A stretch of 64,000 nt of DNA from Minisyncoccota bacterium (lineage in GTDB: Bacteria > Patescibacteriota > Minisyncoccia > Minisyncoccales > JAQTPW01). The notes under the pieces were generated by a model. That model had not been told where the DNA came from. It saw nothing but the letters and a program-made list of their open reading frames with translations, and did not search any database. Where the stretch lies: NCBI GenBank assembly GCA_028712565.1, contig JAQTPW010000002.1, positions 99,601 to 163,600 of the forward strand, read 5' to 3'. Positions 3,389 through 63,179 of the stretch are shown here, piece by piece (position 1 is the stretch's first letter; the number at the start of each line of letters is the position of its first letter). The translations under genes and the position numbers were made by a program.

Positions 3389-5341
3389 TTAAAATTGTCT
3401 GACTTTAACTTTGATAGATTTTTCTTTTTTTGTCAAAGGTTTGGAAGGGTTTTTTGCGATAACTTTTTGGGGTTTGGCGGACTCATTTTTTCCTTTCATT
3501 ATTGCGTCAAATTCTTCTTTTTCAATTGTTTCTTTTTCAACTAGGGTTTTGGCAATTTTTTCCAGTAGCTGCTTCCTTTTTGCTAAAATATTTTGAGCAG
3601 TATTTTCTGCATCTTTTATTATTTTTTCAACCTCTTTATCAATTTGGGAGGCAACTTTTTCAGAATAATTTCTGACTTCGCCAAATTCTTGTCCCAAAAA
3701 TAAAGATTCTTCTCTTTCCCCAAAAGCAATCGGTCCTAATTTTGACATCCCATATACTTTTACCAGCTTTCTTGCCAACGCAGAAGCTTTTTCCAAATCA
3801 TTTGCCGCGCCAGTCGTAATATCCCCGAATTTTAATTTTTCTGCATAGTACCCGCCCAATAAAGTTGAAATTTCTGATAAAAATTCTTTTTTCGTTTTTA
3901 TTTTTCTTTCTTCGGCCGGCATTTTCAAGGTATATCCCGCTGCCATGCCTCTGGCGACAATTGAAACCTTTCGCACGGGTTCAGAATCAGGGAGCGAAGA
4001 AGAAACTAAGGCATGGCCTGCTTCGTGATAAGCGGCAATTTCCTTTTCTTTTTTTGATAAAATATGGCTTTTTCTTTCGGGCCCCAATAATACTTTTTCA
4101 ATTGATTCCAAAAATTCTTCCTGAAATATTTGATGTTTATTCCTACGGGCTGCCAAAAGCGCAGCTTCGTTAGCCAAATTTGCCAAATCTGCTCCGGAAA
4201 ATCCAGGAGTTCTTTCAGAAATTTCCCGCAGATTCACATTCAAAGCCAAAGGTTTGCCCTTGCAATGGATCTTTAAAATTTCTTCCCTGTCATTGACATC
4301 AGGCAAATCCAAAACAATTCTTCTGTCAAACCTGCCTGGCCTCAATAGCGCCGGATCCAAAACGTCAGGCCTGTTAGTAGCGGCAATTACGACCCTGCCG
4401 TCGTCTCTTTCAAAGCCATCCATTTCAGCCAAAATTTGGTTTAGGGTCTGTTCTCTTTCTTCATGGCCGCCGGTTACCCCCATTCCTCTTACTCTTCCTA
4501 TGCTGTCAATTTCATCAATAAAAATTATCGCTCGAGTGGCCCTTTTTGCCTGAGAAAAAAGATCACGAACTCTGCTTGCTCCTACTCCTACAAACAATTC
4601 AATAAATTCAGAGCCGGAAATCGAAAAGAAGGGCACACTCGCTTCATTAGCTATTGCTTTTGCCAAAAGCGTTTTCCCGGTTCCCGGAGGGCCTACCAAT
4701 AAAACTCCTTTTGGAATTCTAGCTCCAATTTGCAGATATTTTTTCGGATTTTTTAAAAAGTCCACTACTTCTTCCAATTCCTGCTTTGCCTCTTTCAACC
4801 CCGCCACGTCTTTGAAAGTAATTTTTTCTTTTGGTTGGCCATCTGCTCCAAATAATCTAGCTCGGGCTTTTGTAAAATCAAATGCCTGCATTGCATTCCC
4901 TTTTGCCTGTCTGAAAATCATCATAAAAAATATTATAAAAAAGACTATCGGCAAAACATAAATTAATACAGGCCCTAGCCAGCTCCAGACGCTAGTTGTC
5001 GCGGCAACGCCAATGTTGACACTGCTTAATTTCGCCGGATCAACTTCTAAATCATTTAATGTTTGAGTCAGCCCGACGCCGCTTTCTTTTAATGATTTTA
5101 CCTGGGTATTGTCTTGATAGGTAATTGTTAGGTTGTCTCCAGAGATAGTTATTGATTTAATTTTCCCTTGGTTGATTTCTTGGACAACCTGGCTAATGTT
5201 TATTTCTTTTAATTGCTGCGATCTTGAGAATAAACTGAAAATCGCAGAAATTATCAGAAAAATTATTAATATAAAAATAAAATTTTTAAATAGGGTTTTC
5301 ATATGCTCTTTTAAAATACCATAAATTTTCTGAAAATTCAA
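3389..5341 (-). CDS. ftsH: ATP-dependent zinc metalloprotease FtsH
   Basis: 650 aa. N-terminal TM segments, Walker [12 protein letters not shown] region and zinc motif HEAGHAL. Confidence 0.97.
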
Positions 5342-7429: not shown

Positions 7430-8578
7430 TTACTTTTTTTCTTCTTTTTCTTTTTTTTCCACCAGCTTTAAGCTCATTCTGTGCTCTACGGGTTGGATTT
7501 CCAAAATTTCAAATTCGTAAGTATCTCCGATTTTTAATATTTCTTCCATTTTTGTTCTGGTTCCAAATTCAGAAATATGACAAAGGCCTTGGATTTTTGG
7601 GGTAATCTGGACAAAAGCTCCAAAAGGGTTAAATTTAGTCACCTTGCCTGAAATCCTGCTTCCTTTTTTGTAATCGGTTTCAACATCCTGCCACGGGTCT
7701 TTTTTCAAAGATTTCAAAGAAAGGGAAACCCTGTCGTCTTTTATTTCAATAATTTTTGCTTTTATTTTTTCTCCGACTTTTACAATTTCAGCCGGGTCTG
7801 AAACGATTGACCAGTCAAGTTCTGAAATATGAATTAAGCCCTCTAGATTTTCTCTTCCGCCTGCATCGTCTGTGCCGGAAGCATTGCGGGCAGGAAATTT
7901 CATAAAAGCGCCAAAATCCACAAGCCCTGTAATTTCTCCTTCAACTATGTCTCCAACTTTATAATTTTTTAAAATTTCCTTTATTTTTTCAGTTTCTTTT
8001 GCTTTTTCAGATAAAATTAACTTGCCTTCTCTGGCGTCTAAATCAAAAATTTTCAATTCCATTTCTGTCCCAATAAATTTCTGAAGTTCTTTTAAAATCT
8101 TGTTTGTATCTCCGCCTTCAACTCTGGGATAATTCTGGGCAGATAATTGGGAAACCGGCAAAAATGCTGAAATGCCAGAAATCTCTGCCAGAAGCCCGCC
8201 CTTATTGGCTCCGGTTATTTTTACTGGAATTAATTCTCCGGTTTCTTTCTTTTGCCTTAATTTTTCCCAGCTTAATTCCTGGCCTGCCTGGCTTAAAGAC
8301 AATTCAATATAGCCCTCTTCGTTTTCAAGATCTATTACTTTTACAAAAATATCGTCTCCGATTTTTAAATTCTTCAAAATGTCTTTTGCGTTGTAAAATT
8401 CCCTTCCATAAATTATTCCTGCTCCGATTGGACCCAAATCAACATAAACCGCAGCTCTTTTTAAGCCGATTATTTTCCCTTCAATGATTTCGCCGACTCT
8501 CGGGGGCTTGATCTGGATTTCCTGCTGGAGAGAGGATTTTTTTTGAAGCAAATTGTTTTTTTCCAATAAATCTTCCAT
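7430..8578 (-). CDS. rpsA: 30S ribosomal protein S1-like (four S1 domains)
   Basis: Repeated S1 OB-fold units (GEIIEGKIIG..., G.IPVKITGANKGGLL..., GDIVEGEITGLVDFGAFMKF..., GSRISGKVTKFNPFGAFVQI...). Start moved to the ATG at 8578 (MEDLLEKNN) because the upstream 35 codons look like AT-rich read-through. Confidence 0.8.
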   Translation of the reverse strand: MEDLLEKNNLLQKKSSLQQEIQIKPPRVGEIIEGKIIGLKRAAVYVDLGPIGAGIIYGREFYNAKDILKNLKIGDDIFVKVIDLENEEGYIELSLSQAGQELSWEKLRQKKETGELIPVKITGANKGGLLAEISGISAFLPVSQLSAQNYPRVEGGDTNKILKELQKFIGTEMELKIFDLDAREGKLILSEKAKETEKIKEILKNYKVGDIVEGEITGLVDFGAFMKFPARNASGTDDAGGRENLEGLIHISELDWSIVSDPAEIVKVGEKIKAKIIEIKDDRVSLSLKSLKKDPWQDVETDYKKGSRISGKVTKFNPFGAFVQITPKIQGLCHISEFGTRTKMEEILKIGDTYEFEILEIQPVEHRMSLKLVEKKEKEEKK

Positions 8579-9645: not shown

Positions 9646-12159
9646 ATGGCAAAAGAAAAACCTAATAAAAAAATAAATAAGCCGGTAAAGCCAGACAAGC
9701 CAATTAATGAAATAGGAAAAATAAAGAGCAGAGAGATTACCGAGGAAATGAAAGATTCCTACATTGATTATGCAATGTCGGTTATTGTTTCCAGGGCTCT
9801 TCCCGACGTCAGAGATGGATTAAAGCCGGTCCACCGGAGGATTTTATATGCTATGCATGAAGACGGGTTAAGGCATGATGCAAAATTCAGAAAATCAGCC
9901 ACGGTAGTCGGCAGCTGCTTGGGGAGATACCATCCGCACGGAGATGTTGCGGTTTACGATGCTTTGGCCAGAATGGCCCAAGATTTTTCCCTAAGATATC
10001 CTTTGATTGACGGTCAGGGAAATTTCGGTTCAATAGACGACTCGCCGGCAGCTATGAGATATACCGAGTGCCGGATGTCAAAAATTGGAGAAGAAACACT
10101 AAAAGATATTGAAAAAGAAACAGTTGGTTTTGTTGATAACTATGACGGCACCAGAAAAGAACCGACAGTTTTGCCCAGCCCAGTTCCCCAGCTTTTGCTG
10201 AATGGTTCCTTGGGGATTGCAGTTGGCATGGCAACAAATATTCCAACTCATAATTTGTCAGAAGTTTGCGACGCCATAAACCATTTGATTGATAATCCCA
10301 AAGCCGACACCGAAGACCTTTTTATGTTTGTAAAAGGACCTGACTTTCCAACCGGCGGAGAAATTTTTGACCAAAAAGGGATAATCCAGGCCTATTCTCA
10401 AGGCAAGGGCCCGATTTTGACTCGCGGCAAAACAGAAGTAGTGGAGCAGGAAAAAACCGGACGCCAACAGATTATTATTACCGAAATCCCTTTCCAGGTT
10501 TCAAAGTCAACTTTAATTGAACAGTTTGCAAATTTGGTTCAGGAAAAAAAGATTGACGGGATAAAAGACATTAGAGACGAGTCAGACAAGGAGGGCTTGA
10601 GAATAGTAATTGATTTGCAAAAAGACGCTTTCCCCCAGAAAATATTGAACCGGCTTTATAAATTTTCCGATCTCCAGAGAACTTTTCATTTGAATATGCT
10701 GGCTTTAGTAGATGGAATTCAGCCGAGAGTTTTAAATTTGGTTGAAATTTTAAGCTATTTTATTGAGCACAGAAAAGAAGTCGTTTTCAAAAGAACAAAA
10801 TACGATTTAGATAAGGCAAAAGAAAGGGCTCATATTTTGGAAGGCTTGCATAAATGCTTGGCCCACATTGATGAAGTAATACGCATTATTAAAAATTCCG
10901 CCAGCCGAGAAGATGCCCAAAAGAATTTGATGAGAAGATTCAAGCTGACCGAAATCCAGGCAAATGCGATTTTGGAAACAAAACTCGCAGCTTTGGCAAA
11001 ATTGGAAAGGCAAAAAATTGAGGATGAATTGAAGGAGCTTCAGGGGAAAATTAAAGAATACACCGCAATTTTAAAAAGCCCGCAGAAAATAAAAGAAATT
11101 GTAAAAAAAGAAGTAAGGGAAATAAAAGAAAATTTCGGCGACGAAAGAAGGACAAAAATCCATGTTCAGCAGGTTGGCGAAATTGCCGAGGAAGATTTAA
11201 TTCCTTCAGAAGAGACGATTATTACCTTGACCCAAGGCGGGTACATAAAAAGAATAAATCCGGAAGTTTATAAAATCCAGAAAAGAGGAGGCAAGGGTTT
11301 AGTTGGCATGAAAACAGTTGGCGAAGATATAGTGGAGCATTTCTTAACCGCCAATACTCATGACAATCTTTTATTTTTTTCTGATTCAGGCAAAGTTTTC
11401 AGAAGCCCGGTTTATGAAATACCCGAAGGCCAAAGAGTGGCAAAGGGAAGAGGGCTTTTGAATTTCTTGGAAATTTCCCCGCAGGACAAAATTTTGTCTT
11501 TAATCGCTTTGGGAAAAAATGATCTGGGCTTGGGGATAAAATATTTAGTGATGGTAACTAAAGATGGTATAATCAAAAAAACCGAATTATCTGAATTTGA
11601 AAATGTCAGAAGGTCGGGTTTAATAGCCATTACCCTCAAAAAAGACGATTTGCTAAGAGGCGTTTCCAAAAGCACAGGCGAAGATGACATAATTTTGGTG
11701 ACCAAAAAGGGAAAGAGCATCCGCTTTAAAGAAAAAGCAATGAGAGATATGGGGAGAGCGGCCTCCGGAGTTAGGGGAATCAGATTGGGCGGAGGAGACA
11801 AATTGGTTGGCATGGACGTTATCCAGAATATAAAAGCCGGCGACAAGCAAAAGCCAGAAAAACAATATTTATTTGTTTTAACTGAAAATGGTTACGGAAA
11901 GAAAACTGATTTGAAAGAATACAGGTTGCAGGGAAGAGGAGGCAGCGGGATTAAAACCTCAAAAGTTACTTCAAAAACCGGAGAAATAGTGGCTTCCAAA
12001 GTTTTGACTCAAGAAGAAGATTTAATTGTTATTTCAAGAGGCGGCCAAGTCATAAGAACAGAAATAAAAAGTATTCCGGTTTTGAGCAGGGGGACACAAG
12101 GAGTCAGAATTATGAAGCTTGGCGAGGGCGACAAAGTGGCATCGGCGGTGTGCATATAA
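9646..12159 (+). CDS. gyrA: DNA gyrase subunit A
   Basis: 837 aa. Contains [17 protein letters not shown], the active-site AAMRYTE region and C-terminal beta-pinwheel repeats. Confidence 0.97.
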
Positions 12160-12162
12160 TAT

Positions 12163-12211
12163 TAGTAGCTAGTAGTTAGTAACTGGTAACTAGTAACTAG
12201 AATTTAGCAAA
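12163..12211. repeat. Heptamer-periodic spacer (7 units: tagtagc tagtagt tagtaac tggtaac tagtaac tagaatt tagcaaa)
   Basis: Fills essentially the whole gyrA-to-methyltransferase spacer. TAG recurs every 7 nt, so stops fall in all three frames. Confidence 0.85.
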
Positions 12212-12212
12212 T

Positions 12213-12728
12213 ATGGAAGGATTTTTAAACCCAGTAGAAGTTTTAAAAAATCTGGAGCTCGAAAAATATATGGTAGCTGCCGATTTTGGTTCGGGCTCTG
12301 GCGGATGGGTAATTCCTTTGGCAAAAAAACTGGAAGACGGCAGGGTTTTTGCAATTGATATTTTATTGCAGCCCTTGTCTGTTTTGGAGAGTCGGGCAAA
12401 AATGGAAAAGTTATTTAATATTCAAACTATAAAAACCGATATCGAAGCTGGTTCAAAATTGCGCCAAGAATCATGCGATTTGGTTTTGCTGACTAATTTG
12501 TTATTTGAAGCCAAAGATAAAAAGGGAATCTTAAAAGAAGCGGGGCGAGTTTTAAAACCAACCGGGAAAATTTTAATAGCTGACTGGAAAAAAGACGCAT
12601 CTTTCGGGCCGAAAGAAGGCAGAGTATCTTCTGACGAGATAGAAAAAATGGCAAAAGATCTGGATTTTAAAGTTGAAAAAAGGTTTGACGCCGGGCTTTA
12701 CCATTGGGGACTAATTCTGGTAAAATAA
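12213..12728 (+). CDS. Class I SAM-dependent methyltransferase
   Basis: Motif I VAADFGSGSGGW and a later LKPTGKILIADW segment. Confidence 0.75.
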   Translation: MEGFLNPVEVLKNLELEKYMVAADFGSGSGGWVIPLAKKLEDGRVFAIDILLQPLSVLESRAKMEKLFNIQTIKTDIEAGSKLRQESCDLVLLTNLLFEAKDKKGILKEAGRVLKPTGKILIADWKKDASFGPKEGRVSSDEIEKMAKDLDFKVEKRFDAGLYHWGLILVK

Positions 12729-15304: not shown

Positions 15305-15356
15305 AGTAGTATTTCAAAAATATTTAATTTTTGATTTTTAATATTTGATATTTTTA

Positions 15357-16092: not shown

Positions 16093-18204
16093 TTATTTTG
16101 GCCAATTTTCAACCATTAAAAATTTTTGTTTATCTTTAAATGGAAAATTTTGATAAATTTCCTCCGTGATAAAAGGCACAAAAGGATGCAAAATTTTTAG
16201 GGAAGAAAAAAGCACAAAAGCAAGAACATTTTTACTTTCTTTGCCACCTTCCTTTTTTGATATTTCAATGTAGCTGTCGCAAAAATCATGCCAGAAAAAT
16301 TCATAAACTCTATGGGCGGCTTGGCCGAATTCAAAACTATCAAAACTTTTATCAATAAATTTTATTGTTTCTTCCAGAGATTTTAGTATTTTTTTGTCAG
16401 CCGGAGTAAGATTTTTTGAATTAAAGGCCGATTTTGCATTTTCTATTTTATTTTGTCCCGATTGGAACAGAACAAAACGGCTGGCGTTCCAGACTTTGTT
16501 GCAAAACTTTTTTCCCATCATTATATTGTCTTCCAAAAATTTAATGTCTTGGCCTCCCATAATCTGGAAAGCGATTCCAAATCTTGTGGCATCAGCCCCG
16601 TATTTATCAATTAATAATATGGGATCAATTCCAGTTCCCAAAGATTTTGACATTCTTTTTCCCTCTTTTGTTAAAACTGTTGGGTGAATATAAACGCGGC
16701 TGAAAGGTATTTTTTTCATAAATTCCATGCCTGAAAAAATCATTCGAGAAACCCACAAATTCAAAATATCTCGGGCTGTGCTCAAAACATCAGTTGGATA
16801 AAAATTTTGCAAATCGTTCTTTTGGGCTTTGCCCTCCGTAGCTTTAGCGGAGGAGGGCCATCCCAGTGTTGCGAAAGGCCAGAGTGCAGAAGAAAACCAG
16901 GTGTCTAAAACATCTTCTGACCCTTCAATTGGGATTTTGTGTCCCCACCAGATTTGGCGGGAAATGCACCAATCTTTGACGTTTTTTAACCATTCCAAAT
17001 ATGGCTTTTCAAAGTTTTTGGGATAAAATTTTATTTTTCCAGATTTTACAGCTTTAATTGCCATTTCGGCTAAACCTCCGCCTTGGGCGGACATTTTCAA
17101 AAACCATTGTTCAGAAGGAATTAACTCAATTGTCGTATTGCATCTATAACATTTTGGAATTTGGTGGATGTAATCTTCAACTTTTTCCAAAAGCCCTAAA
17201 TTTTGAAGATCGGAAATTATTTTTTCCCTCGCTTCCAAAACTGAAAGGCCTTGGTAGGGAAGAGGAGCGTCTTTGGTAATTTTTCCTCTTTCATCAATTA
17301 CTTGTTTGATTCCGAGTTTGTGGCGAAAACCAATGTCTGCATCAACTAAATCGTGGGCAGGGGTTACTTTTACAGCCCCTGTTCCAAATTCTAAATCAAC
17401 TAATCTGTCGGCAATAATCGGGATTTCAATATTTACCAAAGGTAAAACAACATTTTGCCCGACTAAATTTTTATATCTTTCATCTTTTGGATTTACTGCG
17501 ACTGCCATATCCCCCAGCATAGTTTCGGGCCTCGTCGTCGCGACCGTTACATATTTTTGATTTTTGATATTTGATTTTTGATCTATCGGGTATCTTATGT
17601 ACCACAATTTTCCTTTTTCTTCTTTAAATTCAATTTCCAAATCTGACAAAGATGTTTGGCATCTTGGACACCAATTAACAACTCTTTTGCCCCGATAAAT
17701 CAGGCCTTTTTCATAATAATGCAAAAAAGCCGCCTTTACTGCCAGAGTGTAGCCCTCATCCATAGTAAAGCGGGTTCTCGACCAATCCATGGAGGAACCC
17801 ATTTTTTTGAATTGTTCCAAAATTATATTTCCGTATTTTTCTTTCCATTGCCAAACTCTTTCAATGAATTTTTCTTTTCCCAAATCAAACCTTGAAAGCC
17901 CTTCTTTTTTCAATTCTTTTTCAACTACATTTTGAGTGGCAATTCCTGCATGGTCAGTCCCCGGCAGCCAGAGAGTTTTAAATCCCTGAAGCCTTTTCCA
18001 GCGGATTAAAATATCTTGGACAGTTAAATTTAACGCGTGCCCCATGTGCAAGACCCCGGTAATATTTGGCGGGGGAACAACAATTGTGTAGCTTTTTTTC
18101 CTTTTTCCCGGAAGGTAATCCGGATTAAAAAAACCTGACTCCTGCCAGAGTTTATAAATTTTATCTTCAACTTGTTTTGGATCGTAAGCTTTAGATAGTT
18201 CCAT
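16093..18204 (-). CDS. valS: Valine--tRNA ligase (short form lacking the C-terminal coiled coil)
   Basis: PPPNITGVLHMGHAL (HIGH region), TRPETMLGD and KMSKSLGT (KMSKS). 703 aa. Confidence 0.92.
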   Translation of the reverse strand: MELSKAYDPKQVEDKIYKLWQESGFFNPDYLPGKRKKSYTIVVPPPNITGVLHMGHALNLTVQDILIRWKRLQGFKTLWLPGTDHAGIATQNVVEKELKKEGLSRFDLGKEKFIERVWQWKEKYGNIILEQFKKMGSSMDWSRTRFTMDEGYTLAVKAAFLHYYEKGLIYRGKRVVNWCPRCQTSLSDLEIEFKEEKGKLWYIRYPIDQKSNIKNQKYVTVATTRPETMLGDMAVAVNPKDERYKNLVGQNVVLPLVNIEIPIIADRLVDLEFGTGAVKVTPAHDLVDADIGFRHKLGIKQVIDERGKITKDAPLPYQGLSVLEAREKIISDLQNLGLLEKVEDYIHQIPKCYRCNTTIELIPSEQWFLKMSAQGGGLAEMAIKAVKSGKIKFYPKNFEKPYLEWLKNVKDWCISRQIWWGHKIPIEGSEDVLDTWFSSALWPFATLGWPSSAKATEGKAQKNDLQNFYPTDVLSTARDILNLWVSRMIFSGMEFMKKIPFSRVYIHPTVLTKEGKRMSKSLGTGIDPILLIDKYGADATRFGIAFQIMGGQDIKFLEDNIMMGKKFCNKVWNASRFVLFQSGQNKIENAKSAFNSKNLTPADKKILKSLEETIKFIDKSFDSFEFGQAAHRVYEFFWHDFCDSYIEISKKEGGKESKNVLAFVLFSSLKILHPFVPFITEEIYQNFPFKDKQKFLMVENWPK
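17554..17581. repeat. Heptamer repeat inside valS (tttttga tttttga tatttga tttttga)
   Basis: Translated in frame on the minus strand as ...DQKSNIKNQKY.... Belongs to the same AT-rich heptamer family seen in intergenic spacers at 15321-15356 and 18232-18270. Confidence 0.8.
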
Positions 18205-18339
18205 ATATTCAATTATTTTAACACAAAAAAAGAAATTCTAAATCCTAATATCTAAATCTTAAACAATTGGTAAATTCAAAATTTTAAACACATTTTGCTT
18301 TTTGAAATTTGTATTTGTTTAGTTTTTAGGATTTTTGAT

Positions 18340-19503
18340 TTAGGATTTGTCGATTCTAAGATTAGCTTTGGCTTCAATATCGGGATACTTTTTCTTTGGA
18401 TTTTTCAAATAATTAAAATAGGCAGCCAAACCCACCATTGCCGCATTATCAGTAGAAAATTTAGTTTCAGGAACAAAAAATTTTACATTTGGAAGCTCTT
18501 TTTCAATCTTTTCTTTGAATTGTTTTCTTAATTCTTCATTCGCAGTAACTCCGCCGCCCAAAATTACACTTTTTGCTTTAAAATCTTTTGCAGCTTTTAG
18601 GGCTTTCTTCAATAAAACATCAATTATTGCTTGCTGGACTTCGGCGCACATTGCATTTATATATTCTTTCGATTTTTGGGTTTTCCCGCCCGAGGCGGGT
18701 CCGCCTTGGGCGGAGATATTTGATTTTTGATATTTGTATAGTACTGCGGTTTTCAGACCAGAAAAGCTGAAATCGTAATTTTTCTGCGCCATCATAGGCC
18801 GCGGAAGTTTTATTTGTGATTTGTGATTTGTAATTTGTAATTTTGCAGCCGCGGCTGCAATTGCTGGTCCTCCCGGATATCCTAATCCTAAAATTCTGGC
18901 AACCTTATCAAAGCATTCCCCAGCCGCATCGTCTCTTGTTTCACCTAAAATTTGGTATTTTCCAAGACCTTTAGCCAAAATCAACTGCGTATGGCCGCCG
19001 CTCACCACGAGGCACACCGCCGGAAGCAAATTTTTGTAATTTGTAATTTGTAATTTGTAATTTGAGCGAATGAAATTCGCTAAGATGTGGGCTTCGATGT
19101 GGTTAGTGGGCACGATTGGAAGGTTCATTTTCTTTGCTAAATCTTTTGCAAAATTTATTCCCGTCCACAAACAAGGCTCTAACCCCGGACCGTTAGTTAC
19201 AGCAATTAGATCAATTTTTGGTTTCTTTTTGAAGATTGAAAATTGATCATTGAAAATTCCAAAACCTGCTTCTTTTAACGCCCTTTTAAAAACAATAGGC
19301 AAGTTTTTTTGGTGTTCTCTTTTTGCTAGAGACGGAAAAACTCCGCCGTATTTTGCGTGGAGTTTAACTTGTGAGGAAACAATATTGCTAAGAATTTCTA
19401 ATTTCCAATTTTTCCCGCCCGAGGCGGGTCCGCCTTGGGCGGATATTTCCAAAATCGCGATTGCGGTGTCGTCGCAGGAAGTTTCAATAGCGAGGATAAT
19501 CAT
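18340..19503 (-). CDS. tsaD: tRNA N6-adenosine threonylcarbamoyltransferase TsaD, carrying about 50 extra residues in five loop insertions
   Basis: IETSCDDT, VSGGHTQL, DFSFSGLKT and TDNAAM motifs. 387 aa, compared with about 337 aa for the E. coli TsaD sequence I recall. Confidence 0.92.
   Translation of the reverse strand: MIILAIETSCDDTAIAILEISAQGGPASGGKNWKLEILSNIVSSQVKLHAKYGGVFPSLAKREHQKNLPIVFKRALKEAGFGIFNDQFSIFKKKPKIDLIAVTNGPGLEPCLWTGINFAKDLAKKMNLPIVPTNHIEAHILANFIRSNYKLQITNYKNLLPAVCLVVSGGHTQLILAKGLGKYQILGETRDDAAGECFDKVARILGLGYPGGPAIAAAAAKLQITNHKSQIKLPRPMMAQKNYDFSFSGLKTAVLYKYQKSNISAQGGPASGGKTQKSKEYINAMCAEVQQAIIDVLLKKALKAAKDFKAKSVILGGGVTANEELRKQFKEKIEKELPNVKFFVPETKFSTDNAAMVGLAAYFNYLKNPKKKYPDIEAKANLRIDKS
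18681..18742. repeat. GC-rich double-palindrome element copy 1 plus adjacent heptamers, in frame in tsaD
   Basis: ttttcccgcccgaggcgggtccgccttgggcgga (34 nt, identical to 19410-19443) followed by gatattt gattttt gatattt. The element encodes ...SAQGGPASGGK.... Confidence 0.85.
18812..18846. repeat. Heptamer repeat (atttgtg x2, atttgta x2) in frame in tsaD
   Basis: Encodes KLQITNHKSQIK. Confidence 0.8.
19029..19065. repeat. Heptamer repeat (aatttgt x4-5) in frame in tsaD
   Basis: Encodes SNYKLQITNYK. Confidence 0.8.
19393..19443. repeat. Heptamers plus GC-rich double-palindrome element copy 2, in frame in tsaD
   Basis: aatttct aatttcc aattttt followed by the same 34-nt cccgcccgaggcgggtccgccttgggcgga element. 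Encodes SAQGGPASGGK a second time. Confidence 0.85.
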
Positions 19504-20469: not shown

Positions 20470-20590
20470 TTTTTTATTTACCTCGAGCCGTATTGAAAGG
20501 GTTTAACCCATCCGAAGCTTTAGCGAAGGAGGGCTTGTCCTGAGTCATATCGAAGGGCTTGCCCTGAGCCGTGTCAAAGGGTACAATAAA
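20470..20590. repeat. GC-rich degenerate repeat cluster (gagccgtattgaaaggg / gagtcatatcgaagggc / gagccgtgtcaaaggg; ccgaagctttagcgaagg)
   Basis: Three to four related units of about 25 nt, in an otherwise AT-rich intergenic region. Confidence 0.7.
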
Positions 20591-20617: not shown

Positions 20618-21565
20618 ATGGAAGAAATAAATGGAGCGCAAAATAGCAATAAAACTATATTACCCACAAAAACGAAAATCGCCACGATTTGGCTTATGGT
20701 ATTGAGTATTTTGTTTTTTGCACTTATTGCTGTTTTTTTTCTGCTTATTGTGTACGAAAACTCTAAACCCAGTTTAGGCATAAATGATTTCGCAGGACTT
20801 GAATGGATCTTTTTTACAGTAACCAGCCTTATTCTCGCAGTTCCTGGAATTTTACTTTTTTTATCCGCTAAATTTATATTCAAAGCCAAAAAATGGGCAT
20901 GGCTTTTGGGCCTAATTTCTACATTGATTTTATTCTTTGTGCTGGTTGGGGTTGGATTAGAGTCAATCAGGGAAATATTAAATCCCAAACCTTATACTGG
21001 TCCGATACCGATTTATTTCCCAATAATTTGTTTTGCAATTTCATTTATATTTTTGGTTCCTGCCATTCTTCTCCTTCTTGCTAGAAAAAATTTCTGGAAG
21101 GCGACAAAACTCAGGGAGCAAACAAAAAATATTGCACAGGATAATAAAATTATATTTCCTGTAAAAACAGAAATCGCGGCGTGGTTGATTATGATTGCGA
21201 GCATTTTCTTTTTAATATCCGTTCCTCTTTTTTCATTAACGGTTAGTTTTAACAGTCTTATCCTTATTGGTGGTTTTATTGCCCTCTTCTTTTTATCCGC
21301 CATCTCTATATTAAAATCGCAAAAACTAGCATGGTTTTTGGGTTTAATTATCTCTTTTGTAGCAGCTACGTATGCACTGGTTTCATGTGTAAATTATTTA
21401 AATAATTATATTCAATATATCCAAGAAATTAACAAAATTACTTATTATGTAAAATTTTCTTTTAATTCAGCTCATTTATTGTATCTTTTAATCCCTGCTT
21501 TTTTATTCATTCCTCCGATTCTTCTCCTCCTCGACCGTAAAAACTTCTGGAAAATAGCGAGATAA
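20618..21565 (+). CDS. Polytopic membrane protein: internal tandem duplication of the ~150-aa LPTKTKIA...KNFWK module
   Basis: Two halves each start with (L/F)P(T/V)KT(K/E)IA..W(L) and end with LLLL(A/D)RKNFWK. Paralogous to the next two genes. Confidence 0.75.
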   Translation: MEEINGAQNSNKTILPTKTKIATIWLMVLSILFFALIAVFFLLIVYENSKPSLGINDFAGLEWIFFTVTSLILAVPGILLFLSAKFIFKAKKWAWLLGLISTLILFFVLVGVGLESIREILNPKPYTGPIPIYFPIICFAISFIFLVPAILLLLARKNFWKATKLREQTKNIAQDNKIIFPVKTEIAAWLIMIASIFFLISVPLFSLTVSFNSLILIGGFIALFFLSAISILKSQKLAWFLGLIISFVAATYALVSCVNYLNNYIQYIQEINKITYYVKFSFNSAHLLYLLIPAFLFIPPILLLLDRKNFWKIAR

Positions 21566-21639
21566 TAATTAGCCAATAGCCAATAGCCACTAGTCGATAG
21601 CCACTAGTCGATAGCCACTAGTAATTAGTAATTAAAAAC
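21563..21639. repeat. Heptamer-periodic spacer, 11 units starting at the stop codon (taataat tagccaa tagccaa tagccac tagtcga tagccac tagtcga tagccac tagtaat tagtaat taaaaac)
   Basis: Strict 7-nt phasing of TAG/TAA from the stop codon of 20618..21565 almost to the next start. Confidence 0.9.
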
Positions 21640-21648
21640 AATAAATCT

Positions 21649-22101
21649 ATGGAAACAGAGCATGTAAATTGGGAAAACGAGGAATCAAACAAAATAATAA
21701 AGCCGCCGACAGAAACAAAAAAAGGAGTTATAGATAAAGGACCTCTTCCTACAAAAACAAAAATCGCAACATTCTGGATGTTAAGTATTGGAGGGATTAT
21801 GTTGCTTTATGGTTTGATAAAATTATTTCAAAAGTGTGAAGAATTTTATTGTTCTTCGCCGGCGAAAGGACTAATTTTTGGTCCCTTGCTGATAATTTCG
21901 GCACTCGGCTTATTAAAACTGAAAAGGAAGTATATCTGGGTTTTTATTGTTTCAATAACTATCGAACCATTTTTAATTGATTCACTAAGGGACGTCTTCG
22001 TATTTAGAAGCGCTATAGATTTTTTAAACGGTATTTTATTCCTAGTTCCTTTAGTGCTTTTTCTGATCGATAGCGGAAATTTTTGGAAAATAGCAAAATA
22101 A
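21649..22101 (+). CDS. Membrane protein, single LPTKTKIA...GNFWKIAK module
   Basis: 150 aa. Shares the PLPTKTKIATFWM N-terminal motif and the LFLIDSGNFWKIAK C-terminus with its neighbours. Confidence 0.75.
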   Translation: METEHVNWENEESNKIIKPPTETKKGVIDKGPLPTKTKIATFWMLSIGGIMLLYGLIKLFQKCEEFYCSSPAKGLIFGPLLIISALGLLKLKRKYIWVFIVSITIEPFLIDSLRDVFVFRSAIDFLNGILFLVPLVLFLIDSGNFWKIAK

Positions 22102-22161
22102 TAATTAGCCACTAGCCAATAGTATTTAGCCAATAGTAACTAGTTAATAATTAATTAATAA
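22099..22161. repeat. Heptamer-periodic spacer, 9 units starting at the stop codon (taataat tagccac tagccaa tagtatt tagccaa tagtaac tagttaa taattaa ttaataa)
   Basis: Same architecture as 21563-21639. Confidence 0.9.
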
Positions 22162-22166
22162 AAAAT

Positions 22167-22769
22167 ATGGAACAAATCGAACAGCAAGGCGTAGAAAATA
22201 AATTACCCACAAAAACGAAAATCGCGGCGTGGTGGATGGTGGGTTTGGGAATTTATTTTGCATTTCAAGATATAAGCGCAAAAATTTTCGATACCTCTTC
22301 TATTTTTGTTAGTCTTTTATTTATTCTCCCTCCGATCATTTTGCTTCTTAGTAGTAACGAATGGGCCTGGTTTTTTAGTTTTGTTATAATTTTTTTTCTT
22401 TTCACCCCAGCTATTTTTCAAATGCTAACAGAAAAAAGTTTTTTTGCTATCATTCACGGGCTTTTGACAACAGCCCCGATAGTGTTTTTTATTATTGACT
22501 ATAAGAATTTCAAGAGATTGTCATCGAGGAGCCAATTTAAAAAAGCATCAACTCCCGCTGTGGTTAGGGTTTTTGCTATGCTTTTAATTGTTTTAGTACC
22601 TTTATTTATGGCTTCATTAGTTTTGGGGTTTCTTGTTACAAGTGCGTTTTCTAATTATCCCTCTGAATACCCTTTTACGCAACTTGTATTTATTGTATTT
22701 TTGGTGGCAATAATAATTAGTGTTTTGAGTATTATTGCCGGGATACGGTTATATAGAATAAAAAAATAA
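22167..22769 (+). CDS. Membrane protein with one LPTKTKIA...YKNFKR module plus extra C-terminal TM helices
   Basis: 200 aa. N-terminus KLPTKTKIAAWWM and mid-protein FFIIDYKNFKRL. Confidence 0.7.
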   Translation: MEQIEQQGVENKLPTKTKIAAWWMVGLGIYFAFQDISAKIFDTSSIFVSLLFILPPIILLLSSNEWAWFFSFVIIFFLFTPAIFQMLTEKSFFAIIHGLLTTAPIVFFIIDYKNFKRLSSRSQFKKASTPAVVRVFAMLLIVLVPLFMASLVLGFLVTSAFSNYPSEYPFTQLVFIVFLVAIIISVLSIIAGIRLYRIKK

Positions 22770-26624: not shown

Positions 26625-26628
26625 AAAT

Positions 26629-26870
26629 GGAGAGGTGGCTGAGCGGTTGAAAGCAGCAGTCTTGCCACGTACGAAAGCGGAGGGTTGGCTGAGAGGACTA
26701 TAGCGCTGGTCTTGAAAACCAGTTGGGGAGAAATCCCCTCGGAGGTTCGAATCCTCCACCCTCCGCTTTCTGACGTGGTCTGCGGAAAAACATTGGAATC
26801 GAAGTGAGCCTGCCCCGTATAATCCGAGCGGAGCGAAGATTTGTACGGGGTTCGAATCTCACCCTCTCCG
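26629..26870 (+). other. Split tRNA-Ser-like gene (5' half 26629-26664; 3' half ~26779-26870) interrupted by tRNA-Ser(UGA) and by a 42-nt hairpin inside the T arm
   Basis: The 5' part GGAGAGGUGGCUGAGCGGUUGAAAGCAGCA matches tRNA-Ser(GCU) at 26 of 30 positions. The 3' part is GUGAG[42-nt insert]UUCGAAU-CUCAC-CCUCUCC-G. The acceptor strands are perfectly complementary. See findings. Confidence 0.5.
26679..26765 (+). tRNA. tRNA-Ser(UGA)
   Basis: GGAGGGU-UG-GCU-GAGAGGACUAU-AGC-G-CUGGU-CUUGAAA-ACCAG-UUGGGGAGAAAUCCCCUC-GGAGG-UUCGAAU-CCUCC-ACCCUCC-G. Confidence 0.9.
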
Positions 26871-26997
26871 CCTTCGCTCCGCCGAAGCCCTAAAGGGCGG
26901 AGGCGGGCTTCGCCAGAGCTTCGGCGTGACAAGTCCGCAACGTAATAAATTTTCTGAGAAAATTTAAACGTTGCTGAAAAATTTTTATATTAAATTT

Positions 26998-35765: not shown

Positions 35766-36545
35766 ATGCAATTTATTTTTTACGTTTTTGCTTTTATCAT
35801 TGGGTTATTAATCGGCTCTTTTTTAAATTGCGTAATTTATCGTTTGGAAAAAGAAGAGAGCTTTTTAAAAGGCAGGTCTTACTGCCCTTTTTGCAAACAC
35901 CAATTATCATGGCAGGACTTGTTTCCTGTTTTTAGTTTTTTAATTTTAAGAGGAAAATGCCGATATTGCAAAAAGCCAATTTCCTGGCAATATCCTTTAG
36001 TTGAATTAGCCACCGGTTTTTTATTTCTTCTCGTCGCCCAACATTCTTTCCTGAATTTACTAGTTACTAGCTACTGGTTACTAGTTACCAGCCTTCTGAT
36101 TATTATTTTCGTTTTTGATTTAAAACACTTTATAATTCCCGACAAAGTAATTTATGCAGCAATTTTAGCATCTGGCATCTGGTATTTGATAGCTGGCATA
36201 TTTTTACATTTATATAGCGGACAGGAATTATTAATTTTTCTATATTCTGCCTTTTTTGCCGCACTGTTTTTTTTCATAATTGTTTTAATTTCCCGGGGCA
36301 ACTGGATGGGGATTGGAGATATAAAATTGGCTTTTTTTATGGGGCTTTTCTTGGGTTTTCCCAAAATAACAGTCGCTTTATTTTTAGCTTTTCTAATAGG
36401 TGCTATAATAGGAGTAGGGCTGATAATTTCAAGAAAAAGAAAGTTTTCTTCTGAAATACCTTTTGGGCCATTTTTGGTAACTGGAACATTTCTGGCTTTA
36501 TTTTTCGGGCAAAATATAATCAGCTGGTATATAAATTTGTTTTAA
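35766..36545 (+). CDS. pilD: Prepilin peptidase PilD (A24 family)
   Basis: N-terminal CPFC...CRYC zinc motif and a polytopic peptidase domain with GIGDIKL. Confidence 0.9.
   Translation: MQFIFYVFAFIIGLLIGSFLNCVIYRLEKEESFLKGRSYCPFCKHQLSWQDLFPVFSFLILRGKCRYCKKPISWQYPLVELATGFLFLLVAQHSFLNLLVTSYWLLVTSLLIIIFVFDLKHFIIPDKVIYAAILASGIWYLIAGIFLHLYSGQELLIFLYSAFFAALFFFIIVLISRGNWMGIGDIKLAFFMGLFLGFPKITVALFLAFLIGAIIGVGLIISRKRKFSSEIPFGPFLVTGTFLALFFGQNIISWYINLF
36057..36091. repeat. Heptamer repeat inside pilD (ttactag ttactag ctactgg ttactag ttaccag), reverse complement of the tagtaac-type intergenic spacer repeat
   Basis: Translated in the only open frame as LLVTSYWLLVTS. Confidence 0.8.
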
Positions 36546-48400: not shown

Positions 48401-49043
48401 AGTTGATGGAAAGATTTTGGAAATAAATCCTGACAGGATTATAAAAATAAAAGCGGAAAGCGCAGACCCAAAAAGCAAAAAGAAAGAAGTTTTGGAATAC
48501 AGAATCCCATTAAAAAGCGCAATTTTGGTTTCCGTGGGCCAAGATGTTAAAAAGGGAGACCAACTTTGCGAAGGAAGTTTGGATCTAAAGGAATTATTCA
48601 AAATGGTTGGCGTCTCTAAAACCCAGCGCTATATTGTCAATGAAATCCAAAAAATTTATGTTTCCCAAGGAGCTCAAATTCATGACAAGCATATTGAAGT
48701 TATTGTCAAACAAATGTTTTCCAGAGTAAGGATAAAAGATATTGGCGCTTCTTCTTTCACCCCCGGAGAAATTGTGGAAAAATCAGAATTTTTAGAAAAA
48801 AATGCGGCTTTAAGAAAAGCCGGAAAAGAAACTGCAACCTGCGTTCCTATTCTGCTCGGAATTTCTCGGGTTTCTTTGACCACAGATTCTTTCTTATCTG
48901 CTGCTTCTTTCCAGGAAACATCAAGGGTTTTGATAAAAGCTTCTCTTGAGGGGAAAGAAGACAAGCTAAGGGGTTTGAAAGAGAATGTCATAATTGGAAA
49001 ACTAATCCCAGCTGGAACTGGCTTTAAGAAAGAAGAGAAATAA
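45432..49043 (+). CDS. rpoC: DNA-directed RNA polymerase subunit beta'
   Basis: 1203 aa. Zinc motif CYCGKY...CDRCGVEV and catalytic NADFDGDQM. Confidence 0.98.
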   Translation: MKVSDLESIKIKIASPDNILSWSHGEVTKPETINYRTQRAEKDGLFCEKIFGPEKDYECYCGKYRRIRYKGIVCDRCGVEVTKSQVRRERMGHIKLASPCAHIWFLKGVPSSVGMVLDMPMAQLERVIYFAAYIITNVNPEAKKNTLEEIEKEYKQKTKNIKSKAKTKKEEKSGLEELTALRDRAKTEVANLNFLRVLSEVEYHDLSLKYGEIFEAGTGTETLRKIFEKVDLKKEIEKLKKDIEESTPANRRKLLRRLKFLQGMIDSSLRPEWMFLTALPVLPPDLRPMVQLDGGRYASSDLNDLYRRVINRNNRLKYLLEINAPDVIVRNEKRMLQEAVDALIDNGMRKGTTTQATTGGRRLLKSLADMLKGKQGRFRQNLLGKRVDYSGRSVIVVGPELRLNQCGLPKQMALELFKPFVIRKILEKELAYNVRGASRLIEEETDEVWAILEEEVKGKLVLLNRAPTLHRLGIQAFQPVLIEGESIRIHPLVCKAFNADFDGDQMAVHLPLSTEAQTEAREIMMSSLNLLKPATGTPIVTLYQDISLGCYWLTNIIESGEIISKIYGSPKEAVLAYEFGDISIKEKIKAKGIKGKDPNEFVETCVGRILFNETLPADYPYQNSLIKVKDLEKITSRIISKYGLEIAEITLDKIKNLGFEYATKSGISWGIDDLVIPPEKGKIIEGAEKEISQVEDHYQKGLLSKEEKIAKVIEIWTKAKSEVEKLVPQALPKNGSVFQIVDSGSRGSWSQPVQMAGMKGLVINPVGQIIELPVISSFKEGFDVLEYFISTHGARKGTADTALRTSTAGYLTRRLIDVAHEIIVFEEDCKTIKGIEISRKEADDLGQNYVSKIVGRVTLEDIKSGPAKPENQRAKTIAKAGEIIDWEKAEEIVATGVEKVNIRSPLSCNSTRGVCQKCYGWDLGANKLVKIGEAVGTVAAQAIGEPGTQLTMRTFHTGGVAGGGDITFGLPRVQEVFEARIPGGKAEISEVDGKILEINPDRIIKIKAESADPKSKKKEVLEYRIPLKSAILVSVGQDVKKGDQLCEGSLDLKELFKMVGVSKTQRYIVNEIQKIYVSQGAQIHDKHIEVIVKQMFSRVRIKDIGASSFTPGEIVEKSEFLEKNAALRKAGKETATCVPILLGISRVSLTTDSFLSAASFQETSRVLIKASLEGKEDKLRGLKENVIIGKLIPAGTGFKKEEK

Positions 49044-49072
49044 AGCTCGGCAGTCTATTCAGGGAGCACGGC
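48990..49072 (+). repeat. Direct repeat copy 1: last 54 nt of rpoC (including stop) plus 29 nt
   Basis: Identical to 49238-49291 plus 49301-49329 (copy 2 has a 9-nt insertion, attgaaggg). Confidence 0.9.
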
Positions 49073-49237: not shown

Positions 49238-49329
49238 ATAATTGGAAAACTAATCCCAGCTGGAACTGGCTTTAAGAAAGAAGAGAAATAAATTGAAGGG
49301 AGCTCGGCAGTCTATTCAGGGAGCACGGC
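49238..49329 (+). repeat. Direct repeat copy 2: non-functional relic of the rpoC 3' end
   Basis: Encodes IIGKLIPAGTGFKKEEK* but is preceded by an in-frame TGA five codons upstream. Confidence 0.9.
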
Positions 49330-52856: not shown

Positions 52857-52965
52857 AAAATTAAATTTCTAATTTTTAATATCTAATTTCTAAACAAATA
52901 TCGAATTCTAAAATTCAAATTTCAAACCCGTTTAGGGTTTAGAAATTAAGATTTAGGATTTTTAG

Positions 52966-53536
<571 letters not shown>

Positions 53537-56386: not shown

Positions 56387-56411
56387 AGCTTAGGAATTTC
56401 AATTAATAATT

Positions 56412-56483
56412 CACCAATCTTACTAATTATACTAATTCTACCAATCATACCCTTTTTACCAGTTATACCAATTTTACCGATTA
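56412..56483. repeat. 9-nt periodic repeat (8 units, TACYAATNN on plus; nnnTTGGTA on minus) filling the rnj-trpS spacer
   Basis: caccaatct tactaatta tactaattc taccaatca taccctttt taccagtta taccaattt taccgatta. On the coding (minus) strand it begins with the rnj stop and gives in-frame TAA/TAA/TGA/TAA in alternate units. Confidence 0.85.
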
Positions 56484-58229: not shown

Positions 58230-58359
58230 CCCGTTAGAGGTCTGTCCTATATAGTTTATACGCTAATTTTGGATAGACCTTTATTTTTTGATTAATCCCC
58301 CCGTTATCGCAAGCAAAAAATTTATTTTAAATTTTTTGCCCAAGACCTCTAACGGGGTT
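58227..58359. repeat. 133-bp TIR-bounded palindromic element, copy 2 (tRNA-Leu(CAG)-rnj spacer)
   Basis: Differs from copy 1 by one extra T (ggaTagacc) and one fewer T in a T-run. Its terminal CAC is the GTG start of rnj. The other end lies 6 nt from the tRNA-Leu 3' end. Confidence 0.9.
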
Positions 58360-61865: not shown

Positions 61866-63179
61866 TTAGGTGTGTGGAAGAAAATTCTGAAACCTCAGTT
61901 TTTTGTGATAGGAAATAGCAAAGCGGTGGGCTTCGTCTCTTAGCTGCAAAATCAAATTAAAGATTTCTCTGGGTAAAGTTTTAAGCAAGAGCGGCCTTTC
62001 TCTGCCCTCTATATATAACTCATTTTGTCTCTTCGCTATTGCAATTACTGGAATTGTTAATTGTTTGCTTCTAATTGTTATTTGGGCCGCATTTAACTGG
62101 GCCTTTCCGCCATCGATTAAAATTAGGTCAGGATACAGCCATTCTGAATGATTTAACCTTCTAAAAAGTATTTCTTTTATCATGGCAATATCGTTTGGTT
62201 TTCCTGAAATTTTTATTCTAAACCTGCGATAAAAGTTTTTATCCGGTTTTCCTGCAAAAAAGTTCACCATGGAACCCGTTGCCTCTTTCCCTTGGATATT
62301 GGAAATATCATAGGCTTCAATGCGGTTTATTTTCCTGCCGGTCTTTAAAATTTTTTGCAAAATATTTTGGGTTTTTTGCCAGTTATCTTGAGAAATTATT
62401 TCCCCGCCATTAAAGATTTTTGAATTAGACAATACCTTTTCAAAGGCCAGAATCTTGTCTCTTATTTTTGCAGCTTTTTCAAAATCTTTGCTTCTGGAGG
62501 CTCCTTTCATTTCTCTTTTTAATTTCTCTTTAACCCGAGATTCTTTTCCAGAAAGTATTCCAAAAAGGGAAGCGGCATTCCTTTTGGCTTCATTTTCTAA
62601 TTTTTCGCTGATTTTTGGCACTTCCAGAATTTTTGATCTTAGAGTGCAGGGGGCCGGGCATCTGTCCAAATGATACCAAAGGCAAGGCCTTTTTGGTAAA
62701 AATCTGCAGGATCTGTAAGGAAAAACCTTTCTTAATATTTTTAAAGTTTCTTTTAGGGATTTGCCGTCGACAAAAGGTCCGGCAAATTTAGAATATAGAA
62801 TATAGGATTTAGAATTTAGCTTTGGTTGGTGGGTGATGAAGATTTGGGGAAAAGGTTCTTGCGTTTTTCCAACAAAAAAATAATTTTTGTCGTCTTTCCA
62901 GACGATATTATATTTTGGCTGGTATTTTTTAATTAAATTTGCCTCCAAAATCAAAGCTTCAATTTCAGAATTGGTTTTGAAATAGCCAATCTTATTAACT
63001 TTATCTATAAATTGTTTATCCCAGAAATTCGGCTGAAAAAAATGATTTTTCACCCGCTCTTTTAGGTTAGCCGCCTTTCCGATATATAATAACTTTCCTT
63101 TTTCTTTGAAAATATAAACTCCGGCTTCTTTGGGAAGTTTTGGTATATTATCTTTTAAAATAAATTTAAATTTTATCAC
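61866..63179 (-). CDS. uvrC: Excinuclease ABC subunit C (short form, no C-terminal HhH pair)
   Basis: GIY-YIG N-terminus (GVYIFKEKGKLLYIGKAANLKERV), a Cys-rich segment, and an RNase H-like endonuclease region (RIEAYDISN). Confidence 0.8.
   Translation of the reverse strand: MIKFKFILKDNIPKLPKEAGVYIFKEKGKLLYIGKAANLKERVKNHFFQPNFWDKQFIDKVNKIGYFKTNSEIEALILEANLIKKYQPKYNIVWKDDKNYFFVGKTQEPFPQIFITHQPKLNSKSYILYSKFAGPFVDGKSLKETLKILRKVFPYRSCRFLPKRPCLWYHLDRCPAPCTLRSKILEVPKISEKLENEAKRNAASLFGILSGKESRVKEKLKREMKGASRSKDFEKAAKIRDKILAFEKVLSNSKIFNGGEIISQDNWQKTQNILQKILKTGRKINRIEAYDISNIQGKEATGSMVNFFAGKPDKNFYRRFRIKISGKPNDIAMIKEILFRRLNHSEWLYPDLILIDGGKAQLNAAQITIRSKQLTIPVIAIAKRQNELYIEGRERPLLLKTLPREIFNLILQLRDEAHRFAISYHKKLRFQNFLPHT

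Follow-up and report, generated by a model that had tools for sequence, protein, structure and literature searches.

Stop-bearing heptanucleotide arrays at gene junctions of a Candidatus Pacebacteria genome, probably born of slippage and sorted by purifying selection

The DNA analysed here, called the window below, is a 64,000-nt stretch of a 163.6-kb contig in a metagenome-assembled genome (MAG) of Candidatus Pacebacteria/Paceibacterota, a lineage of the Candidate Phyla Radiation (CPR), and it is compact with about 37% G+C (35-40%). Its subject of interest is a set of tandem 7-nt repeats (heptamer arrays), above all the focal array between the first two of three tandem paralogous membrane-protein genes (Table 1). 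The focal array (21563-21639) reads TAATAAT TAGCCAA TAGCCAA TAGCCAC TAGTCGA TAGCCAC TAGTCGA TAGCCAC TAGTAAT TAGTAAT TAAAAAC. The TAA stop of the upstream open reading frame (ORF, 20618-21565) sits within the first unit, and the end of the array lies 9 nt before the ATG at 21649. Direct reading of the sequence thus bore out the first-pass annotation, which had described 11 phased heptamers from the stop codon onward. Gene leaders in the window are A/T-rich, and of its 59 genes only 9 have so much as a weak Shine-Dalgarno (SD)-like 4-mer on their 5' side; translation in this genome thus seems to start independently of SD sites. Just 5' of the focal paralog gene (20530-20581) there is also a 24-nt tandem repeat of 2.2 copies, with the GC hairpin AGGGCTTGCCCT in each copy.

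The junction of the second and third paralogs holds a related array (22099-22161) with the units TAATAAT TAGCCAC TAGCCAA TAGTATT TAGCCAA TAGTAAC TAGTTAA TAATTAA TTAATAA. It had been annotated as having the same architecture, and this holds for its nine units counted from the stop, but the phased TAG is lost in the last two. Both paralog spacers have the junction ...FWKIA[R/K]-TAA-TAA-T-TAGCCA in common, which means that they come from one duplication and not from independent events; their unit counts are 11 and 9, a comparison between paralogs and not between strains. Tandem Repeats Finder (TRF) detected period 7 at 21570-21621 of the focal array and also period 14, (TAGCCACTAGTCGA) x 3.8 with 92% match. 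This 14-nt sub-repeat is private to the focal array, the sister spacer being without it, and we therefore take it as a signature of slippage growth in place after the duplication. The homologs of the focal paralog are distant (30% identity or less); they end in the same NFWKIAS-stop, which is followed by ordinary non-heptameric DNA, and no TAG array was found downstream of these homologs. The third TAG array lies between gyrA and a gene for an S-adenosylmethionine (SAM) methyltransferase. Its seven units and its end 1 nt before the ATG at 12213 agreed with the annotation, but one unit has TGG instead of TAG, and the array starts 6 nt, not 7, past the first base of the gyrA stop. The tetramer CTAG is strongly depleted in the window (64 observed, 218 expected from base composition), and 11 of the 64 sites fall in four TAG-family arrays that cover about 0.4% of it.

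The excess of period 7 was then quantified. A period scan gave 10 period-7 arrays in the window against 0.15 expected from third-order Markov simulations. Besides period 7, raised counts were seen for the multiples 14 and 21 and for 18, the last from the 9/18-nt array behind rnj, and any other period had 3 arrays at most. TRF reported about 20 period-7 arrays, and a six-unit TAG-phase pattern had 5 matches in the window and none in 100 shuffles. The autocorrelation of intergenic DNA, which the first-pass annotation had proposed as a check, gave the peak at lag 7 (identity 0.327, against 0.305 at lag 6 and 0.309 at lag 8). Heptamer-built spacers nevertheless make up only 6 of the 40 window spacers of at least 20 nt. 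The scanned arrays are divided equally between 5.2 kb of intergenic DNA (five) and 58 kb of coding DNA (five), the latter lying inside the genes of LeuRS, TsaD (twice), prepilin peptidase and UvrC. When the window was pooled with seven syntenic relatives (197.5 kb, the clade sample), 57 arrays were counted, 13 of them intergenic (0.72 per kb) and 44 in coding sequences (CDS; 0.25 per kb). Taking window and clade sample together, the intergenic density was 3- to 11-fold the coding density. The hallmarks of heptamer long simple sequence repeats (SSRs) are present: tandem head-to-tail units (11, 9 and 7), period-7 excess and intergenic enrichment. Chance low-complexity sequence might be suspected at this G+C content (35-40%) and in AT-rich spacers, and so might an assembly artefact, but 10 arrays against 0.15 in the simulations and five six-unit matches against none in 100 shuffles speak against the former, while the latter does not fit arrays that are shorter than one sequencing read and a phenomenon that recurs in independent assemblies; we give these two explanations practically no weight. 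The general TAG-phase pattern also matched on at least 120 contigs of viruses, where the units are many and unrelated to one another, telomere-like TAGGGTT among them, so by itself it shows only that such arrays are common. A genome-collection scan with TsaD gave a single locus, from a Bacteroidetes MAG unrelated to the window host (CAVQDS010000002.1). It had nine period-7 arrays in 21 kb (for example 152-344, 3923-4009 and 11737-11798), a count that is biased because this locus was picked via its heptamer-encoded peptide pattern; the count is nevertheless in line with the long heptamer arrays that have been reported in Bacteroidetes (PMC4679880).

The seven relative loci (L002, L003, L004 and L126 to L129) encode a TsaD that is 56-66% identical to that of the window. 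The TsaD-LeuRS adjacency is kept in six of the seven, and the wider block TsaD-LeuRS-PrsW-HSP20 ... pilin-methyltransferase-gyrA in five. The gyrA-methyltransferase junction is 53 nt of TAG heptamers in the window. L127 and L129 have 4-5 nt there, L126 has 20 nt, and L003 and L128 have 73 and 88 nt of non-heptameric DNA; the heptamer array is thus absent at this orthologous junction in L003, L127, L128 and L129. The TsaD-LeuRS junction is built of heptamers in the window (135 nt) and in L126 (120 nt), and has -4 to 8 nt in L002, L003, L127 and L128. The reverse was seen at the LeuRS-PrsW junction, where the genes of the window overlap and the junctions of L002, L126, L127 and L128 are heptameric. 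Such presence and absence at orthologous junctions, together with the array-free homologs, means that arrays come and go, and that the ground state of a junction is a handful of bases. Judged from the sequences compared, the arrays are best described as lineage-specific gains at minimal junctions.

The first-pass annotation had also stated that the spacers place stops in all three frames, and every forward frame was indeed found closed 4-6 times in each of the three TAG spacers. This closure probably comes from arithmetic, as 7 is not a multiple of 3, and from survivorship, and would then not make the arrays a designed insulator. Where such units lie inside genes, the stop has been changed: the array in prepilin peptidase reads ...AGC TAC TGG..., the one in-frame TAG being TGG, and that in UvrC reads ...TCC TAT ATT..., the in-frame TAA being TAT. 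Arrays at a gene end supply its stop; TsaD runs three extra codons (DKS) into a TCCTAAA array and terminates there. Of the 44 clade-sample arrays that lie in CDS, 12 have a consensus unit with a stop on the sense strand and 24 have one with a stop on the antisense strand, with a random expectation of 45% for either strand. Of the 10 intergenic arrays between co-directional genes, all have a stop on the sense strand and 7 have one on the antisense strand (again 45% expected). The antisense figure is also raised because of AT-richness, and the sense excess of 10 over 7 was not significant; a sense-strand preference within this clade is possible.

To look at orientation we used a metagenome scan for TAGCCANTAGCCANTAGCCA, a unit that bears a stop on one strand only (TAGCCAN). 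It yielded at least 129 arrays on at least 120 contigs from many organisms (29-71% G+C), the genes on these contigs being longest-ORF calls, and all counts of this sample are among the matches listed. Between co-directional genes, the TAG strand was sense in 25 arrays and antisense in 22. Inside genes, a strand filter was evident, with 15 to 1 in favour of the stop-free strand. Arrays with a gene stop no more than 21 nt away numbered 30 of 60 for the sense and 28 of 65 for the antisense orientation, and of the other arrays on these contigs, 9 were stop-bearing on the sense strand only and 6 on the antisense strand only. Heptamer arrays sit near gene 3' ends, in either orientation. Of the test that had been suggested for anchoring at stop codons and orientation with the upstream gene, the proximity to stops was confirmed but the orientation bias was not.

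All-frame translational insulation, the first of three roles offered by the first-pass annotation, is not supported by these results: arrays are missing at syntenic orthologous junctions and from most window spacers, stop-bearing units of the same families lie within genes, where their in-frame stop has mutated, and the TAGCCAN arrays have no bias toward the upstream gene (25 and 22). A broader form of translational control would make the arrays AU-rich or UAG-repeat leaders, binding sites for proteins (S1, Csp or CsrA-like), or elements that uncouple or insulate neighbouring genes by all-frame stops. It would account for arrays that begin at or across the upstream stop and reach to 1, 9 and 5 nt from the following ATG, for the rarity of SD-like 4-mers (9 of 59 genes), and for the sense stops in all ten co-directional intergenic clade arrays, and a precedent of the same geometry and strong forward bias exists in the TAACTGA repeats of Beggiatoaceae (PMC4679880). 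We consider it unlikely all the same, since the arrays are conserved neither at orthologous junctions nor downstream of the focal-gene homologs, only 6 of 40 spacers have them, the same families occur inside genes, the unit varies from array to array so that there is no common binding motif, and the TAGCCAN sample has no orientation bias. The stop content of the arrays looks like a filter or by-product, not a purpose. A curvature element, the second role offered, is unlikely on geometry alone: three units make 21 bp, or two helical turns, so successive units would lie 240 degrees apart and their bends would cancel.

Known elements were also looked for. The three TAG arrays were no better folded than shuffles (z = -0.55, -1.37 and -1.90). 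Rfam matches in the window were tRNAs only, apart from two sub-threshold chance matches inside an ORF, and none fell on the arrays. An intrinsic terminator was rejected because only weak minus-strand matches fell in the arrays, the overall count of matches equalled the shuffled expectation and the arrays had no stable fold, and CRISPR (clustered regularly interspaced short palindromic repeats) because the unit is far too short. A binding site of the trp RNA-binding attenuation protein (TRAP) consists of 9-11 (G/U)AG triplets 2-3 nt apart and goes with the TRAP (MtrB) protein; the spacing here, 4 nt between TAGs, is wrong for it. By reasoning, a DNA-uptake sequence does not fit units that differ among arrays, and a programmed-frameshift slippery heptamer does not fit units without an X XXY YYZ pattern.

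The AT-rich spacers with 7-nt periodicity that had been annotated as a separate family are real by TRF and the period scan (15319-15353, 18205-18339 and 52857-52984). Spacers of about 120-135 nt made of inverted heptamer arrays form long AU-rich palindromes, belong to small dispersed families and fill the whole stop-to-start gap (18205-18339 and 52857-52984 in the window; 5135-5275, 8385-8510 and 10760-10882 in L126; 8211-8331 in L003). Features of MITEs (miniature transposable elements with inverted repeats) or repetitive extragenic palindromic (REP) sequences, that is terminal inverted repeats or a stable hairpin, were found only in 52857-52984, which folds better than shuffles (z = -2.95), and not in the three TAG arrays. 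This raises the possibility that arrays are remnants or cargo of small MITE- or REP-like mobile elements, which arrived by transposition or recombination rather than growing in place. The two window palindromes are homologous, with heptamer-built inverted arms, three copies of another palindromic heptamer family occur in L126, a 30-nt double GC hairpin lies twice in frame in TsaD beside heptamers (see below), so small elements do spread here, and presence and absence at junctions is clean. But the three TAG arrays have no inverted termini or significant fold and no dispersed near-identical copies, the only relatives of the focal array in the window being in the adjacent paralog spacer; no transposase is nearby, and the private 14-nt sub-repeat shows growth in place. 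A mobile origin is therefore improbable, even more so than translational control, and it fits the palindromic AT-rich spacers better than the TAG arrays.

The explanation that we favour, and regard as probable, is that the arrays are slippage-born heptamer SSRs in a genome that favours 7-nt tandem repeats in general, which expand at minimal junctions, persist as harmless sequence and are sorted by purifying selection according to unit type. Replication slippage at a minimal gene junction would generate the array, and the only DNA to be duplicated there would include the stop codon, so each unit would inherit TAA or TAG and the array would start on the stop. The arrays would persist at junctions because they do no harm there. 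Under purifying selection, stop-bearing units would survive outside genes, or at the end of a gene, its ORF being closed by them within 21 nt, and would survive inside genes only once the in-frame stop had been mutated. Slippage-prone filler is thus the one of the three roles offered at first that is supported by the evidence.

Several points weigh against this explanation. We infer slippage and seeding by the stop codon rather than seeing slippage directly, and the nearest TsaD homolog is only 66% identical. Single-unit slippage cannot explain the in-gene arrays, which need three-unit steps, and the slippage model leaves the preference for 7 nt unexplained. The stop codon was in phase with the array stops at only about half of the junctions inspected by eye, which makes stop-codon seeding suggestive only. 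Furthermore, sense stops in 10 of 10 co-directional intergenic clade arrays against an expected 45% are what a functional model predicts, although the sample is small; all three of the co-directional intergenic clade arrays with stops on one strand only have them on the sense strand; and only 1-9 nt separate the end of an array from the following start, in a genome with hardly any SD sites.

The arrays inside TsaD deserve separate consideration. Two TsaD loops keep their length between conserved flanking motifs (28 residues in six of eight lineages, and 19 residues in six of eight). The loop arrays are internally homogeneous, with a unit of its own in each lineage: AAATTAC x 4 in the window, perfect AACTTAC x 4.7 in L003, AATTTYC in L128 and AATTCCC-like in L127. 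Each 7-nt unit is read in three frames and gives a peptide without an internal repeat on which selection could act, so the homogeneity must arise at the DNA level, which implies concerted evolution, presumably in 21-nt steps. Runs of identical residues at lag 7 occurred in 92 of the 120 closest TsaD homologs. They numbered 180, compared with 14 in shuffled sequences and 0-22 for the other lags. It is possible, though we hold this only tentatively, that a lineage-wide DNA-level process in Paceibacterota creates heptamer arrays and keeps homogenising them, even inside essential proteins, where they form heptapeptide loops; the spacer arrays would then be only its visible margin. If so, concerted evolution in 21-nt steps or an unknown templated mechanism would be at work, and it would be a hitherto overlooked origin of those insertions in proteins that are typical of CPR bacteria. 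Our literature search found no paper on lineage-wide homogenised in-frame heptamer arrays in Paceibacterota.

TsaD also carries an identical 30-nt double GC hairpin, TCCGCCCAAGGCGGACCCGCCTCGGGCGGG, twice in frame (18685-18714 and 19414-19443, minus strand), translated SAQGGPASGG, and both copies adjoin heptamer repeats. The first hairpin of TCCGCCCAAGGCGGACCCGCCTCGGGCGGG occurs once more in LeuRS, as a half copy (17077-17091). Rickettsia palindromic elements (RPEs) insert in frame in genes, and the TsaD double hairpin resembles in-frame palindromic elements of this kind.

Table 1 Repeat arrays of the window and the genes around them
Feature	Position	Strand	Remarks
Focal array	21563..21639	+	77 nt, 11 strictly phased heptamers, TAGCCAA/TAGCCAC/TAGTCGA/TAGTAAT family
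Paralog array	22099..22161	+	9 units; begins on the stop of 21649-22101, ends 5 nt before ATG 22167
Three tandem paralogous membrane-protein genes	20618..22769	+	20618-21565 (two domain copies), 21649-22101, 22167-22769; junctions hold both TAGCCA arrays
TAGTAAC-family array	12163..12211	+	7 units between gyrA (9646-12159) and SAM methyltransferase (12213-12728)
AT-rich heptamer array	15319..15353	-	Fills the PrsW-to-HSP20 junction
Palindromic spacer of inverted heptamer arrays (TCCTAAA ... TTTAGGA)	18205..18348	-	Between TsaD and LeuRS; TsaD stop 18340-18342 inside
Second copy of palindromic heptamer element (AATTTCT arm, TTTAGGA arm)	52857..52984		z = -2.95
In-frame heptamer array, CAAAAAT on sense strand	17553..17582	-	Inside LeuRS, translated QKSNIKNQK
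Three in-frame arrays	18812-18843, 19033-19064, 19229-19258	-	Inside TsaD; KLQITNHKSQI, NYKLQITNYK, FGIFNDQFSIF
In-frame TTACTAG array	36057..36091	+	Inside prepilin peptidase
In-frame CTAAATT array	62785..62819	-	Inside UvrC
9/18-nt tandem repeat after rnj stop	56413..56482	-	TAA/TGA in frame in alternate 9-mers; not heptamer class

Other repeats of the window do not belong to the heptamer class. The spacer between rnj and trpS had been annotated as a 9-nt unit with in-frame TAA/TGA in alternate units, and this proved correct for the minus strand, where it is a 9/18-nt repeat. Within 56387-56483 (minus strand), the 18-nt repeat read in frame after the rnj stop gives *SVKLV*LVKRV*LVELV*LVRLVNY*, with a stop in every other 9-mer. 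A second frame, GKIGITGKKGMIGRISIISKIG, has no stop along its whole length. The repeat might be what is left of a C-terminal repeat after decay, or it might be something different. The final 55 nt of rpoC, stop codon included (48990-49044), are perfectly duplicated 248 nt downstream (49238-49292), and the same motif of about 28 nt, GCTCGGCAGTCTATTCAGGGAGCACGGC, comes after each copy; this has the look of a tandem duplication that was only partial, or else of an insertion where the gene ends. A 135-nt repeat of 95% identity occurs in two unrelated intergenic contexts, at 53402-53536 downstream of a convergent pair next to rpsS6 and at 58225-58359 upstream of rnj by a tRNA-Leu gene; a small RNA is conceivable, as is a mobile element. 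The tRNA-Ser(tga) gene (26679-26766) is flanked by partial copies of tRNA-Ser 5' and 3' parts (26626-26658 and 26830-26871), which a duplication or an integration site may have left behind.

These results add a CPR lineage to the organisms known for intergenic heptamer repeats, and they indicate that a spacer can have stops in all three frames without having been designed for it. The genome, tiny and compact, tolerates 7-nt repeats in large numbers, both at minimal junctions and in loops of essential enzymes, and offers a clean natural system for two old questions: what makes prokaryotic slippage favour units of 7 nt, and by what route repeats turn into insertions in proteins. Since the arrays define stops and the limits of genes and make proteins longer, they affect how CPR genomes are annotated and aligned. 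Clade-wide concerted evolution of in-frame heptamer arrays in essential proteins would be more interesting than the spacers themselves.

Our literature search found no paper on heptamer repeats in CPR bacteria, so the comparison is with other prokaryotes. Heptanucleotides are the most abundant class of long SSRs in most prokaryote genomes surveyed, according to Mrazek (2007) as cited in PMC4679880 and PMC4692102, and the same citations credit that study with the proposal that a length of 7 nt corresponds to the stretch of DNA in the grip of the polymerase, so that slippage would be favoured. The first-pass statement that such spacers are not an ordinary bacterial feature was therefore overstated, the more so as intergenic heptamers with stops in all three frames have already been described (PMC4679880). 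The arrays of the window are like the long SSRs of Mrazek (2007), as these are cited there, in their head-to-tail 7-nt units, period-7 excess and intergenic enrichment, in units that are specific to lineage and locus and appear to vary across related loci, and in having polymerase slippage as the proposed origin and no established function. The host is different, a reduced CPR genome, whereas long SSRs of 5-11 nt are said in these citations to typify large genomes. Another difference, as far as the cited accounts go, from long SSRs and from short tandemly repeated repetitive (STRR) sequences is that the units here are AT-rich or TAG-bearing and many are in frame in essential genes.

The STRR units of the cyanobacteria Calothrix and Nostoc are CCCCAGT, TTGGTCA and CAACAGT, and no tandem copy of these three sequences was found in the window. 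Calothrix STRR heptamers go back to Mazel (1990), as cited in PMC4692102. The intergenic heptamers GGGAATC and GGGGAYT of Xanthomonas and Nostoc are flanked by the same genes in related species, while their length and sequence vary greatly (Rehm 2015, PMC4692102). The arrays of the window are likewise intergenic heptamer SSRs, some of them as inverted pairs, but the GGGAATC and GGGGAYT units are G-rich and form quadruplexes (PMC4692102), whereas the arrays here are AT-rich or TAG-bearing and have no G-runs. The likeness to REP sequences, REP doublet-forming hairpins (REPINs), MITEs and RPEs is limited to the palindromic heptamer spacers and the 30-nt TsaD hairpin; the focal TAG arrays differ from REP sequences and MITEs in that their units are repeated directly and inverted termini are lacking, and no transposase was seen in association with them.

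The closest likeness in geometry is to the TAACTGA direct repeats of marine Beggiatoaceae, some Cyanobacteria and Bacteroidetes, which have 2-6 copies and a strong forward bias (MacGregor 2015, PMC4679880). Forward copies of TAACTGA have stops in all three frames, which limits the overlap with ORF ends to 18 nt; in the most numerous class, 1 nt separates the repeat from the following start codon. SD sites are scarce there, reverse copies form translated parts of ORFs, and MacGregor proposed translational regulation (PMC4679880). The TAG arrays of the window share the all-frame stops, the overlap with the upstream stop, ends at 9, 5 and 1 nt before the ATG, and the rarity of SD sites, and translation of reverse-orientation copies within ORFs is a further common trait. 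TAACTGA is a single genome-wide unit in 2-6 copies, whereas many unit families in 7-11 copies occur here and an orientation bias is not demonstrable; TAACTGA itself was found in the window as four single copies, none in tandem. The arrays are therefore heptanucleotide SSRs, and neither STRR sequences sensu stricto nor, by sequence, of the TAACTGA type: the anatomy is the same and the unit is different.

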